A DNA stretch of 64,000 nucleotides from a virus, in the IMG/VR virus record IMGVR_UViG_3300027747_002198, positions 97,800 through 161,799 of that record. One strand, written 5' to 3'. Position numbers and translations under genes: made by a program. This document shows positions 2,791-63,823 of this stretch, in pieces (within the stretch, counting starts at the first letter, position 1; each line of letters starts with the position of its first letter). The notes beneath the pieces were generated by a model. It was given only the letters and a program-made list of their open reading frames with translations. It searched no databases and was not told the DNA's origin.

Positions 2791-3710
2791 AAAAAATATT
2801 AGTGACTGGTGGTGCCGGATTTCTCGGTAGCCACCTTTGTGATAAATTGGTATCTCAAGGGCATCATGTGCTTTGCGTAGACAATTATTTTACCGGCAGC
2901 AAACAAAACATACAACTTCTTTTGAATAAACCAAATTTTGAAATTATTCGTCAAGATATTTGTTTTCCTCTTTATGTTGAAGTTGATGAGATTTATAATC
3001 TTGCTTGTCCGGCTTCGCCTGTACACTATCAACACGACCCAATCCAGACAATGAAAACAAGCATCTTGGGTGCATATAATATGTTAGGTTTGGCGAAAAG
3101 AACTGGCGCAAAGATTCTGCAAGCATCAACATCGGAAGTCTATGGTGATCCACTTGTTCATCCACAAACAGAAGAATATTGGGGTAATGTAAATCCAATT
3201 GGTATTCGTTCTTGTTATGATGAAGGCAAGCGTGCCGCAGAAACTTTGTTTATGGATTATAATCGCAAACATAACGTGGCCACAAAAATTATTCGTATTT
3301 TCAATACTTATGGTCCTAGGATGTCACCTAATGATGGCCGAGTTGTTAGTAACTTCATTACACAAGCGTTAACAGGTAAAGATATTACAATTTATGGTGA
3401 TGGTTCACAAACAAGAAGCTTTTGTTATGTGGTTGATTTGATTGATGGTATGATGAAGATGATGGATTCAAAAGTTGCTGGGCCAATTAATCTAGGAAAT
3501 CCAAATGAATACACAATGTTAGAGTTAGCTGAAAATGTTATTAAAAAAACCAAATCAAAAAGTAGAATTGTTTTTCACGAATTGCCTGAAGATGATCCAA
3601 AACAAAGGCAACCCAACATTACAAAAGCAAGAGAATTATTAAATTGGAAACCATATTATGATTTAGAATATGGTTTACTTGAAACAATACATTATTTTAA
3701 ATTATTATGA
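2787..3710 (+). CDS. UDP-glucuronate decarboxylase (UDP-xylose synthase, extended SDR)
   Basis: [58 protein letters not shown]. Confidence 0.93.
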
Positions 3711-26425: not shown

Positions 26426-27004
26426 ATGTCAAAATATTTGTTTGTACACATACCAAAAACGGGCGGAACTTCCGTCCGTGAAACACTCTTTACTATCGAG
26501 AAAGATAATTGGAAAAGAACATTTTCTTTACTTTATCACGATCCCATTTCTTTATTGCGGGAAAACAATTTTATAGATGATGATTGTTTTGTTTTTACCG
26601 TAGTTAGAAATCCTTTTACAAGAGCTTTTAGTTTGTATCAATATCATAAAATAATAGTCATGAATTTTAGTGTAGATAAAAGTGCAGTCGATTCTTGGAC
26701 ATTTGAATATTTTTTGGAATGTATAAAAACTAATAAAAATATATTTTTTACACCAACATTGAAATCTACACAATCTTATTTTGTGCGTGATAATAATAAT
26801 AATATTGATGTTAATAAAGTATATAAACTTGAAAATTTGCAAGAACTTTCAAATGATCTTAATGTGCCTATACTAAAACTTAATAAAGGAAATTACACTC
26901 AGTCTGATTATATTAATGCTTATAATGATAAAACAATATCCTTAGTTCAAGAAATATATGCAGAAGATTTTATAAATTTTAACTATTCAACTAACTTTTC
27001 ATAA
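26426..27004 (+). CDS. sulfotransferase family 2 protein
   Basis: FVHIPKTGGTS (5'-PSB), VVRNPFTRAFSLY (3'-PB), YAEDF. Confidence 0.85.
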   Translation: MSKYLFVHIPKTGGTSVRETLFTIEKDNWKRTFSLLYHDPISLLRENNFIDDDCFVFTVVRNPFTRAFSLYQYHKIIVMNFSVDKSAVDSWTFEYFLECIKTNKNIFFTPTLKSTQSYFVRDNNNNIDVNKVYKLENLQELSNDLNVPILKLNKGNYTQSDYINAYNDKTISLVQEIYAEDFINFNYSTNFS

Positions 27005-28191: not shown

Positions 28192-28701
28192 CTTACACTT
28201 ATCGTTGTGCCAACGACCGATGTTTCCTATTGTAGTAGTTATACCACAGTAACGACATTGTTTGTTTGGTACATTTAGGTGTTTCGAAGCTTCAGGTTTA
28301 CCAAACATAGGATTATTTTTTCCTAATTTGGTTAAACTTTTTTTTATATTACTTTCCGGTGAAAACACTGGTTTATGACCTTTTTTAAATGACCCGGAAT
28401 TGGTTCTCATTATTTTCATAGGATTAGTTTCACTATCAAAACCACAAGAACTTTTTCTACGGTTCATACATCTTGGTTTACCAAAATGTTCATCCAAGTA
28501 TTTTTGTTCCAAAACTTTGAGTGAATCAATGGAATCTGCGTATTCTATAATTTCTCTGGATAAATTGGATAGTTTTTTTATTTTCCTTACCCAAGTACCA
28601 GAACCCATATAACCATCATTTAGATTTATGGTAGAATGTCTACCATAATAGTAGTTTCCGTTGATGTGGGTTGTCTTATAAATGAAATGATAAATACTCA
28701 T
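28168..28701 (-). mobile_element. free-standing GIY-YIG/NUMOD3-type homing endonuclease gene
   Basis: FIYKTT..YYYGRHS..YMGSG; NUMOD3-like ESNIKKSLTKLGKNNPMFGK; CRYCG..RWHNDKCK; start at ATG 28701 after an AAAGGA RBS; inverted relative to neighbours. Confidence 0.85.
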
Positions 28702-28767
28702 GCTGACACGGTCCTTTCGTATTAGAGTATGTGCGGATGCCAGTCCGGCGACATACAACTATTTATA
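28702..28767 (-). promoter_or_regulatory. late promoter plus structured leader (copy A)
   Basis: TATAAATA at 28767-28760, then hairpin, TACTCTAA, SD hairpin, CAGC-ATG; matches the element at 43290. Confidence 0.75.
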
Positions 28768-28777
28768 AGAGAACAAT

Positions 28778-29044
28778 ATGGCAAAAACATTCAAACAATT
28801 TGTAGAAGCAATTAATAAAAATGATTTGTTAAAACAATTAGGTGCCAAGTTAAACGATCCTGAGTTTAGAAAACGGCCGGCGGATCCAAATAAACGCTGG
28901 GAGCGAGGAGACCTTTACAAAGGTCCTAGCAAAGACGATCCTTCCTATACTAAGAACTTTGGACACGGCTATCCCGATGTTGGTAGTAATCGTAGTCACA
29001 ACCGAGATGTTGAAAAAAGTTTGAAAAAGAAAAACAACAAGTAA
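28778..29044 (+). CDS. small internal-protein-like protein
   Basis: MAKTFKQFVEA N-terminus resembles the T4 capsid-targeting sequence. Confidence 0.65.
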   Translation: MAKTFKQFVEAINKNDLLKQLGAKLNDPEFRKRPADPNKRWERGDLYKGPSKDDPSYTKNFGHGYPDVGSNRSHNRDVEKSLKKKNNK

Positions 29045-29481
29045 TGTCTTGGCAACATAATGGAAATGATTTTACGGAAGATTTGATTGGTAATAATTAT
29101 GGATTCGTTTACTTAATTACTAATATAACGAATAACAAAAAATACATAGGTAAGAAATTCTTTTATTCTACCAAAACCAAACAAGTCAAAGGTAAAAAGA
29201 AACGATACAAAGCACCAAGCGATTGGCAAACTTACTATGGAAGTAGTGCCGAACTAGCTAAAGATGTGTTATCATTAGGTCATGAACAATTCACCCGTGA
29301 AATTTTACATCTCTGCCAGTCCAAAGGCGAATGTGGTTATCTCGAAGCAAAAGAGCAATTCATCCGTGGCGTCATGGAAACGGATGAATACTACAACAAT
29401 TGGATTATGGTACGAGTGAGAAAATCACACATCAAGGAATACAATGCTCGATTATCTCAAAAAGCTCAAGGACGATCCTGA
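29044..29481 (+). CDS. GIY-YIG nuclease (EndoII/Seg-like)
   Basis: GFVYLITN..KKYIGKK, WQTYYGSS, FTREIL, YYNNWI. Confidence 0.85.
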   Translation: MSWQHNGNDFTEDLIGNNYGFVYLITNITNNKKYIGKKFFYSTKTKQVKGKKKRYKAPSDWQTYYGSSAELAKDVLSLGHEQFTREILHLCQSKGECGYLEAKEQFIRGVMETDEYYNNWIMVRVRKSHIKEYNARLSQKAQGRS

Positions 29482-37586: not shown

Positions 37587-37816
37587 AAAAATGGATGGAG
37601 AAAGAGTATTCTCAATGGGTGTACTATGATGATGAGGATGGAAAAATCATTGGATCCGTATATAAAGTTGGTAATACTCAGACTATTTGGGGCGCCAAAG
37701 TATACTTCAATGTAGAAGGTGTATTAGGCCAATATATCGATTCAGACTATGCTAAGAGGGCTGTAGAATATTTCTGGATGGTAGAAGAAAGAAGTGTACT
37801 GGAGAATAAACTGTGA
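37583..37816 (+). CDS. hypothetical protein
   Basis: ATGA overlap; LGQYIDSDYAKRAVE. Confidence 0.6.
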   Translation: MKKWMEKEYSQWVYYDDEDGKIIGSVYKVGNTQTIWGAKVYFNVEGVLGQYIDSDYAKRAVEYFWMVEERSVLENKL

Positions 37817-38376
37817 GTTATGTATATTTTGTATTGGATGAAAAATCTAATGCGGTGAAAATTGGTAAAGCCAATATTATTGAAGAACGTCTGAGTTCAT
37901 TACAGGTGGGCAATCCTAATCCCTTAAAGGTTATTCACTATATTAAGTGTAAATCAGAAGATCATAGCCTCTTAATAGAAAGAAAGTATCACCAGGAATT
38001 TTCAAATCTTTACCTAACTGGTGAATGGTTCAGATACAATGAAGCTGCTTTTAGTGATTTCTTTACTGAGAATACTGGTTTTAAACTGAATGAAAAGAGA
38101 AGTCCACTAATAGTTAATACTGTATTTGGTGAAGAAGAATTATTTGGACCTAAGAATAGTCCTAGTTGTTATTTCTATCCATACTTAACGGCACAGATAA
38201 TGACCAACTTTGAGGACGCTTCTAGAATGAAGATACCGTTTAGGACCATGAAATACCCTACACACGGAAAACCATTATTGATGCCTTATTCGGCTAAAAA
38301 GGATAGGGTCTTTATTTCTTATAAGAAGCATCAAGAGAACCTTGAATTTAAGAAATTTCTGAAGATGGCCTCCTGA
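37813..38376 (+). CDS. T5orf172/MUG113-type GIY-YIG domain protein
   Basis: YVYFV..VKIGKA..ERLSSLQVGNP..E..H..GEWF. Confidence 0.8.
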   Translation: MSYVYFVLDEKSNAVKIGKANIIEERLSSLQVGNPNPLKVIHYIKCKSEDHSLLIERKYHQEFSNLYLTGEWFRYNEAAFSDFFTENTGFKLNEKRSPLIVNTVFGEEELFGPKNSPSCYFYPYLTAQIMTNFEDASRMKIPFRTMKYPTHGKPLLMPYSAKKDRVFISYKKHQENLEFKKFLKMAS

Positions 38377-40235: not shown

Positions 40236-40459
40236 AGTGGTTATTATTGGTTTGATTATACTATTGGCATATCATTTTGCTGATATTGATAATCAGTTTA
40301 GGGTAATGAGTGGTAATATTAGAATAGAAAAGGCACTATAATGAATTATTCATTTACTTGTGGTGGTATCGATTTTGAGAGTTTAGAATTAGCGGTTGAA
40401 TATGCTAATATTGAATATATGCGGTCTGGTGTTATTCTCGGTATTGAAAAGGTGATATT

Positions 40460-43289: not shown

Positions 43290-43356
43290 CATAAATAGGT
43301 GTAGGCCACGATATTACCAGTATCCGCCTACTCTAACATTGTAAAGGAATGCCAGC
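43290..43356 (+). promoter_or_regulatory. late promoter plus structured leader (copy B)
   Basis: CATAAATA, GTAGGC/GCCTAC stem, TACTCTAA, CATT-GTAAAGG-AATG hairpin, CAGC-ATG. Confidence 0.75.
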
Positions 43357-43881
43357 ATGATTATATATCATAATCTCCAAACCGTAGACCAAAACCTATT
43401 GCACCAATTGTTTGAATACCATGATGGTGAATTGTATTGGAAAATCAAACCAGCAATTAGAATCAGAAAAGGTGATATTGTTGGTAATGTGCGTGAAGAT
43501 ACTGGTTATCGTGTAGTTTCTTTATTTGATAAGAAATATGCGGTACATCGGTTGATTTTCTTATATCATCACGGTTATATTCCTAAAATGTTGGATCATA
43601 TTGATGGTAATAAATCAAATAATAGAATTGAAAATTTAAGAGAATGTGATTCGTATCAAAATAATCAAAATGCCAAAAGAAGAAAAGATAATACTTCAGG
43701 TATTAAAGGTGTTTACTTGTTGAAAACTGGAAAATATGCCAAAAATAATAAGTGGATGGCATTTTTTAATAGTAACAAAAAAAGAATATATTTGGGAGTA
43801 TTTGAAAAGAAAGAAGATGCTGAAAATATTATTCGTGAATATAGAGAAAAACACCACGGTGAATTTACTAATCATGGATAG
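43357..43881 (+). mobile_element. free-standing HNH homing endonuclease with AP2-like C-terminus
   Basis: YAVHRLIFLYHHG..LDHIDGNKSNNRIENLREC..NNQN..NTSGIKGV..IYLGVF. Confidence 0.9.
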
Positions 43882-63432: not shown

Positions 63433-63633
63433 ATGGGTTTTTTCAGAATAAGCAAATATACCAAAGATGGTGACATTATGCTGAATTATTTTAAAGAATT
63501 AAAAGGTGGTGGTATGAGAACGGGCTTGCCTCCTATCACATCACAGACTATAATGATGAATGAAGATGAAATTAACGATTTGATAAAGGTACTACAAGAT
63601 TATGCCAACGAAGGACGAAATACGCAATTTTAG
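63433..63633 (+). CDS. hypothetical protein
   Basis: Fills the gap before gp33. Confidence 0.5.
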   Translation: MGFFRISKYTKDGDIMLNYFKELKGGGMRTGLPPITSQTIMMNEDEINDLIKVLQDYANEGRNTQF

Positions 63634-63823
63634 TTTGATGATAGATGAACTAGCGGTAAATTTAAAATGTACTCGCATGGATGCTATTCTACATCATTGC
63701 AAAGAAACTGGTTTGGAAGTAGAAGTTGCCAGTACATTAATTTCTACCGCACTTAAAGCTCGTATTAAAGAAGAAGCACAAGAACTTAACCTAATTAAGA
63801 AAACTTCTCGCTTGCCAATATGA
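63602..63823 (+). CDS. gp33: late transcription co-activator (T4 gp33-like)
   Basis: FSLMIDE..MDAILHHC..LKARIKEEAQELNLI..RLPI; adjacent to gp59. Confidence 0.85.
   Translation: MPTKDEIRNFSLMIDELAVNLKCTRMDAILHHCKETGLEVEVASTLISTALKARIKEEAQELNLIKKTSRLPI

Follow-up and report, generated by a model that had tools for sequence, protein, structure and literature searches.

The final 64 kb of a complete 161.8-kb viral genome (IMG/VR record IMGVR_UViG_3300027747_002198, here G000; terminal repeats, 35% G+C), all of which we call the window, contain two homing endonuclease genes, A and B, that are each preceded by a copy of the same compact RNA leader (copies A and B, Table 1). The two leaders are members of a large homologous family whose three helices are supported by covariation and whose copies stand ahead of endonuclease genes, with a late-promoter-like box at a fixed position and the hexamer TATTTA conserved at the nucleotide level within the first codons. 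On balance, we think it probable that the copies are self-contained endonuclease expression cassettes, each made up of late box, leader, start codon, and UAUUUA(U). An earlier note on this DNA, made from its letters alone, had proposed a portable, structured, cis-regulatory module common to different endonuclease families, and the homologues, the compensatory changes in every helix, and the occurrence ahead of at least three nuclease folds bear this out.

Structure and extent of the leader family

The order of elements in the family is constant: the box, the P1/P2 hairpin, UCUAA, a 4-bp helix (P3) with the Shine-Dalgarno sequence (SD) in its loop, CAGC, AUG, and TATTTA, the leader proper being ~58 nt long. 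P1/P2 is a bulged hairpin in which a lone purine:pyrimidine (R:Y) pair, flanked by two invariant bulged C residues, lies between P1 and P2. We read the elements of both copies in the sequence as the earlier note had given them, except that the string ATCCGC, which it listed as common to the two, is not positionally homologous; in copy A it spans the 3' arm of P2 and the bulge, whereas in copy B it runs from the P2 arm through the bulge into the beginning of P1. Folding of the two copies as single sequences is not significant (z -0.13 and -1.02), so two copies alone would prove little, and the support for the structure comes from covariation across homologues.

Homologues were collected from IMG/VR with two sequence patterns. 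The first (box, UACUCUAA, and AUG) matched at least 118 contigs, 65 of which had the full architecture, and the second, in which the box was not required, matched at least 120. A covariance model (R1; 58 positions, 15 pairs) gave 63 matches when run on the first 100 loci from the first pattern and 75 in 94 new loci of the box-free scan; the other 18 loci from the first pattern, taken together with the window, added 12 strong matches. Leader counts here come from the matches listed in both scans, and the family totals of ~150 R1 matches, at least 138 unique leaders, and 123 viral loci are lower bounds. Searches of the whole records of five phages yielded 34 more copies (5, 12, 3, 1, and 13), the phage with 13 copies being a complete 360-kb genome with a gp23-type capsid gene. 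The carriers are uncultured T4-type phages from water, with a gp23-type capsid (the gene is present in G000 and in a second genome, G005) and genomes of 140 to 360 kb. When the same pattern was applied to prokaryote genomes as a control, there was a single strong match in 100 loci, on a 2.2-kb contig of a metagenome-assembled genome, in contrast to the 75 matches across 94 viral loci. Run on the 161.8-kb genome, the homologue-built R1 scored copy B at 71.4 bits (E 1e-18) and copy A at 67.2 bits (E 2e-17), and these scores together with the number of homologues rule out a chance likeness of the two. Thus building a covariance model and searching viral contigs with it, as the earlier note had suggested, brought many further homologues.

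All three helices covary strongly across these homologues, in keeping with the earlier observation from copies A and B that stem sequences vary while pairing is kept. In the seed alignment 95.8% of cells are paired, with double changes in 12 of the 15 pairs, as against 30-43% for slid partners. Aligned to R1, the second set of loci gave 93.7% paired cells and double changes at 15 of 15 pairs (slid partners, 20-56%); because this alignment was fitted to the model structure, pairing is somewhat favoured in it. P1 variants from whole genomes include GUGAGU/ACUCAC and GCGGUU/AACCGC, in which pairing is fully kept, and GAGAGC/GCCCUC, with one A·C mismatch. Mutual information across 149 leaders and their flanks ranked pairs of P1, P2, and P3 at the top; the few other high-scoring pairs are neighboring columns produced by alignment shifts and so give no sign of a pseudoknot, and no pseudoknot or long-range pairing beyond P1-P3 was detected by this measure. 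The helices vary freely and the P2 loop is variable, whereas C7, C9, UCUAA, and CAGC are unpaired yet invariant (entropy ~0).

The earlier note did not recognize the leader as a named RNA family, and comparison with Rfam leaves its novelty standing. The whole window had no match at gathering score in Rfam 15 (which includes HEARO and the known small ribozymes), nor did the leader in five leader-bearing loci at an E of 1 or less. Megablast of the two regions and blastn of three leaders against GenBank phages returned nothing relevant, and R1 had no significant match in five cultured Kyanoviridae (Sf-CH11, S-CREM1, Melnitz, Mosig, and S-RIM32); judged by RNase H (~50% identity), cyanomyoviruses and the Methylophilales phage Melnitz are the nearest relatives in culture. 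In the published literature we found no description of the motif string or of a relevant endonuclease-linked RNA motif. One leader-bearing viral contig (L063) also carries a permuted transfer-messenger RNA gene (2935-3252, minus strand; RF04321, 95 bits).

To characterize the genes behind the leaders, we clustered 129 downstream proteins of at least 80 aa and matched them to Pfam and PHROG. GIY-YIG proteins form two clusters, of 52 and 29 members, and HNH proteins one large cluster of 31; the rest are of the HNH_3 type seen with copy B or belong to small groups. The Pfam domains tallied were NUMOD3, GIY-YIG, HNH, HNH_3, HNH_5, HNH_4, a TnsA-like endonuclease of the PD-(D/E)XK type, DUF7487, AP2, and the I-TevI DNA-binding domain, and some of the proteins carry NUMOD3 motifs only. 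Homing or HNH endonucleases account for 23 of the 25 PHROG families matched by the largest numbers of proteins, and the other 2 are unnamed; these two excepted, every tally is an endonuclease family or an endonuclease-linked DNA-binding motif. The association of the leader with endonuclease genes of several folds is thus exclusive, and the tabulation that the earlier note had suggested shows homing endonucleases of at least three nuclease folds.

Within G000, two of the three clear endonuclease genes have the leader. The third (HNH and NUMOD3; G000:C1:56372-56830, plus strand, outside the window) has none; its start overlaps the upstream stop codon (ATGA), and it begins ATGATATATCAT, much like copy B. 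The claim that the proteins behind copies A and B lack evident similarity held (BLASTP E 3.8). The assignment of gene A to GIY-YIG/NUMOD3 stood in part: its protein has a GIY-YIG-like N terminus and a weak NUMOD3 match (E 0.004), but no Pfam GIY-YIG match.

The box and the first codons

TAAATA is present ahead of 135 of the 138 leaders, preceded by A (NATAAATA) or C (CTAAATA), so that a box of the form TATAAATA or NATAAATA/CTAAATA stands directly upstream of the endonuclease gene in nearly every case. Both forms are known late boxes of T4-like phages, where they lie at -13/-12 to -6, and T4-type late promoters require only the 8-bp box (PMC1524935). The spacer between box and P1 is 5 nt in 81 leaders and 3 nt in 46. 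The 5-nt subfamily has GUAGUU as P1, and the 3-nt subfamily, to which copies A and B belong, has GUAGGU, GUAUGU, or GUAGGC. The box is also evident where the search did not demand it: in the box-free scan [A/C]TAAATA was found 3 or 5 nt before P1 in 64 of 74 leaders, compared with a background of 0.035%.

In G000 as a whole ATAAATA is depleted ~3.5-fold, with 35 copies against ~125 expected (29 on the plus and 6 on the minus strand, against ~72 and ~53), and almost every copy, whichever strand it is on, has a start codon 20-60 nt downstream. This rarity is consistent with a purging of spurious late promoters. The window also encodes a gp33-like late-transcription coactivator (Table 1), in a genome that, as noted, encodes a gp23-type capsid protein; gp59- and gp32-like genes come after the gp33-like gene, across the genome ends.

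The second conserved sequence lies inside the coding region. An exact TATTTA lies no more than 13 nt from the AUG in 115 of 138 leaders. Read on the opposite strand, this hexamer, or TATTTAT, gives the core of the box. The earlier note had described codons 2-4 of both genes as complementary to the box; this is exact in copy A and has one mismatch in copy B, whose TATATAT is a variant shared by ~10 of the 138 leaders. Depending on its offset, the hexamer is translated as MxIY (92 leaders), MYL (14), or MIFI (6), and all three frames occur within a single HNH subfamily, in which MYLx, MIFI[DN], MNIFII, or MSIYLS precedes a conserved NKYT core, so that the hexamer is kept while the residues change. 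In another HNH subfamily MxIY is followed by linkers of variable length and then by a conserved RKIYE. Conservation of TATTTA in three reading frames indicates that it is part of a nucleic acid module and not of the protein, and the complementarity between box and codons that the earlier note had pointed to is thus a real constraint at the nucleotide level. We regard this as one of few clear examples in which a regulatory sequence sets the N-terminal residues of proteins that are unrelated to one another.

Proposed function and alternatives

How might such a cassette work? We infer promoter activity, a start site, and a stabilizing and an occluding role. Phage late RNA polymerase would start ~6 nt past the box; by the -13 to -6 rule the predicted start is the first G of P1 where the spacer is 5 nt and lies 2 nt inside P1 where it is 3 nt. 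A late mRNA would thus begin with a 5'-terminal hairpin and leave the ribosome site exposed, and the hairpin may stabilize the message and prevent mispairing of the leader. RNA started farther upstream would retain the box, which could pair with UAUUUAU and close a three-way junction, with P1/P2 and P3 as its other arms, around the SD and the AUG; the closed junction would silence translation until late in infection. The logic of this mechanism would be that of T4 gene e and I-TevI, and a translational switch between read-through and late-started RNA is plausible as a model.

Several observations weigh against this reading. The helix between box and codons would have only 6-7 A-U pairs, is absent from the minimum-energy folds of copies A and B, and has a mean predicted probability of 0.31, with values over 0.5 for 30% of the leaders; neither covariation nor an extension of the helix was seen in the bases next to the box and TATTTAT. 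The SD lies in the loop of P3 and is not sequestered, unlike in the T4 cases. By a crude ORF-based classing, 70 cassettes (~55%, including copy A) are divergent from the upstream gene, 39 are co-oriented, and 19 are unclear. Sense read-through is unlikely in the divergent ones, and TATTTA is conserved irrespective of context (59 of 70 divergent and 34 of 39 co-oriented). In the 3-nt subfamily P1 would lose 2 bp if transcription began at the predicted start. A search of the 360-kb phage with 13 copies yielded no gp33 homologue, but a query of just 66 aa makes this negative a weak one. Finally, the invariant unpaired C residues, UCUAA, and CAGC are not explained by the cassette model and suggest a binding partner.

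Such a partner is the core of one alternative, in which a trans-acting RNA-binding protein, from phage or host, uses the leader as its operator. This protein would read the bulged hairpin, UCUAA, and CAGC and would control all endonuclease mRNAs of a genome together, in their translation or their stability. Proteins classically bind bulged hairpins, C7, C9, UCUAA, and CAGC are fixed although unpaired while the helices are free to change, and up to 13 copies per genome would make a regulon. However, we identified no candidate protein, the P2 loop is variable, and the role of the invariant bases might just as well be in ribosome binding or tertiary folding. A CsrA-like arrangement of paired GGA sites was rejected, GGA being present in only 27 of 145 P2 loops (19%). 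We consider this operator unlikely, although it would be compatible with the cassette. The other explanation of some substance concerns TATTTAT, which might be, instead of or in addition to an RNA partner, a second late promoter on the opposite strand, making a face-to-face pair ~80 bp apart that would transcribe the displaced neighboring gene or produce antisense RNA damping endonuclease expression. The 8-bp box is all that a T4-type late promoter needs (PMC1524935), nearly every ATAAATA of G000 is upstream of a gene whichever its strand, and copy A has GATAAATA in the appropriate orientation before the divergent orf28778 (Table 1). In the ~55% of cassettes that are divergent, the start of the upstream neighbor is a median of 47 nt from P1, and invading endonucleases that bring promoters affecting their neighbors have been discussed (PMC2988022). 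On the other hand, TATTTA is kept equally in co-oriented cassettes, where an outward promoter would yield only antisense RNA. The position equivalent to -12 is free in the MYL class, the reverse box there being mostly GTAAATA or TTAAATA, which are almost never sense boxes; the equivalents of -13 and -5 differ from sense boxes in base frequencies; and copy B, with TATATAT, has no such box. A promoter of this kind is possible, if doubtful.

The two alternatives that the earlier note had allowed for, an independent noncoding RNA and a mobility end, found no support. That the element acts at the DNA level, as a recombination or mobility end or as a cleavage or operator site of the endonuclease, seems very unlikely to us. 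Related phages differ in whether they possess a cassette with its leader (the related phage G003 lacks the copy A region), the box often overlaps the upstream stop codon (which lies inside it in 18 of 40 co-oriented cases) and so marks an insertion boundary, and I-TevI has an operator, overlying its own late promoter, to which it binds (PMC2988022). Nevertheless, the compensatory changes, which include G-U pairs, and the fixed register of SD and start codon point to RNA, and a common DNA recognition site is improbable for proteins whose DNA-binding and catalytic domains are unrelated. A free-standing small RNA or self-cleaving ribozyme that merely adjoins endonuclease genes is extremely improbable: the fold is compact and conserved with invariant unpaired bases, but it matches no ribozyme or RNA family at an E of 1 or less, has no pseudoknot covariation, and belongs to a conserved block that continues uninterrupted through the SD and the AUG to the first codons. 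We also looked for a Rho-independent terminator (a GC-rich hairpin and U run) and found no such site at either leader on either strand; the leader hairpin is followed by UCUAAC, without a U run.

Returning to the expression cassette, we offer a stronger version of it only tentatively, and doubt it somewhat: the cassette may be a universal "expression plug," exchanged with its own first codons among at least three unrelated nuclease superfamilies. The inverted promoter repeat together with the unpaired invariant bases would act as a switch, possibly under a dedicated RNA-binding factor, and restrict translation of all of a phage's endonucleases to RNA from their own late promoters. If true, a regulon of mobile genes would be defined by a cis-regulatory RNA of a new class.

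The usual view of free-standing homing endonuclease genes is of bare open reading frames that borrow host signals, or of genes whose hairpins evolved one by one. Here a single module of promoter, leader, and start serves GIY-YIG, HNH, and PD-(D/E)XK enzymes, so that regulation seems to be among the parts that these selfish elements can transfer. The leader family is a clean, covariation-supported candidate for Rfam and a sensitive marker for endonuclease cassettes and late promoters in uncultured T4-like phages. As a compact natural part (late promoter, 5' hairpin, and displayed SD), it also has a logic that is directly testable with reporters.

Genomic setting and relation to known systems

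Table 1. Leader elements, the genes behind them, and related features, in window coordinates
Feature	Position	Strand	Remarks
Copy A, late-promoter-like box TATAAATA	28767-28760	-	Read from sequence; 3 nt ahead of P1
Copy A, structured leader	28756-28699	-	R1 match, 67.2 bits, E 2e-17
Copy A, P1	GTATGT 28756-28751 / ACATAC 28732-28727	-	Read from sequence
Copy A, CGC between P1 and P2	28750-28748	-	
Copy A, P2	CGGA 28747-28744 / TCCG 28737-28734	-	Read from sequence
Copy A, UCUAA	28726-28722	-	
Copy A, P3 (ACG/CGU enclosing AAAGGAC, the SD loop)	28720-28708	-	
Copy A, CAGC-ATG	28705-28699	-	
Copy A, TATTTAT	28696-28690	-	Codons 2-4; exact reverse complement of box core
Copy A, reverse-strand box GATAAATA	28689-28696	+	82 nt upstream of the ATG of orf28778
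Gene A, homing endonuclease, 177 aa	28168-28701	-	PHROG 314 "homing endonuclease," E 5e-23
Copy B, late-promoter-like box CATAAATA	43290-43297	+	3 nt ahead of P1
Copy B, structured leader	43301-43359	+	R1 match, 71.4 bits, E 1e-18
Copy B, P1	43301-43306 / 43326-43331	+	
Copy B, CAC between P1 and P2	43307-43309	+	
Copy B, P2	43310-43313 / 43321-43324	+	
Copy B, UCUAA	43332-43336	+	
Copy B, P3 with SD loop	43337-43351	+	
Copy B, CAGC-ATG	43353-43359	+	
Copy B, TATATAT	43362-43368	+	Variant of TATTTAT; one mismatch to box complement
Gene B, homing endonuclease, 174 aa, HNH_3	43357-43881	+	PF13392, E 8.4e-16; PHROG 99, E 3e-59
Possible decayed solo leader	40276-40339	-	Weak R1 match, 17.9 bits, E 0.005-0.006; family membership uncertain
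gp33-like late-transcription coactivator	63623-63820	+	34% identity to the phage Melnitz coactivator

Comparison with G003 places gene A within an insertion. In that phage, whose nrdB is 76% identical at the DNA level, a small open reading frame after nrdB is followed directly by a SegE-like gene, whereas the window has ~850 bp (28192-29043) with gene A, its leader, and orf28778, which encodes 88 aa without a family match. The gene that follows the insertion (29044-29481, plus strand) encodes a 145-aa protein with a SegE_GIY-YIG domain (E 4.6e-39) in a denA-like position; because it is conserved beside nrdB in G003, we regard it as a resident nuclease and not as part of the cassette. A sulfotransferase-like reading frame between nrdA and nrdB (26426-27004, plus strand; Sulfotransfer_2, E 2e-6; PHROG 3347) is likewise absent from G003. 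Elsewhere in the window, a 187-aa protein with MUG113/T5orf172 domains and a weak Pfam GIY-YIG match (E 0.03) is encoded at 37813-38376 (plus strand) with a GTG start and no leader. We looked for a third full copy and found only the weak, probably decayed match listed in Table 1, in which TTCTAAT and ATCAGCAAAATG are recognizable and which lies within a 225-nt gap, with nothing after it but a 4-codon reading frame; it may be a solo leader that remained after loss of its endonuclease gene. No tRNA genes were found in the 64-kb window.

Among known structured RNAs, HEARO (omega-RNA, RF02033) resembles the leader in standing beside an HNH-type nuclease gene. It differs in being an IscB guide-RNA scaffold of IS200/IS605 elements that is much larger and has no promoter/SD arrangement, and it was not matched here in Rfam. 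A closer parallel is found in the metagenomic fractured genes (split inteins) described by Dassa et al. in 2009, in which hairpins with two complementary motifs occupy the 5'-untranslated regions of GIY-YIG and Vsr-like genes (PMC2677866). These hairpins also come from environmental phage-like DNA and are common to endonucleases of different families, and ten of them include TATAAATA (PMC2677866). To compare them directly, we fetched gp41-1 loci with a 79-residue query of the gp41-1 N-intein, which matches of up to 96% identity confirmed. Identity with the gp41-1 hairpin was rejected, there being no R1 match in 51 gp41-1 split-intein loci; the gp41-1 leader has TATAAATA in a hairpin loop and is without UCUAA, P3, and CAGC. 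The present family may overlap in part with the hairpins at the other loci of that paper (nrdA-5 and DnaE-1).

Of the individual hairpins, that of seg43(25) of Aeromonas phage 25 (PMC2988022) is similar in being stable and in lying just upstream of the ribosome site without sequestering it, but it is known only as a single predicted hairpin. The closest counterparts in organization are T4 gene e, I-TevI, I-TevII, I-TevIII, segB, and mobE of Aeromonas phage Aeh1, in which the late promoter forms the 5' strand of an inhibitory structure (PMC3014915; PMC2988022). As here, the endonuclease genes of that group have a late box directly upstream in a T4-like phage, RNA structure in the leader, and a promoter complementary to part of the translation start region, so that only RNA made from the late promoter would be without the inhibitory strand. 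A late promoter with RNA structure ahead of phage endonuclease genes is thus known from T4, whereas a homologous, portable, multi-helix leader appears to be undescribed. Each T4 or Aeh1 case has its own hairpin, in which the SD is buried, and no common sequence family has been described for them; the present family, in contrast, places one homologous three-helix leader on hundreds of genes of at least three nuclease folds, displays the SD in a loop, and carries the complement of the promoter in codons 2-4.

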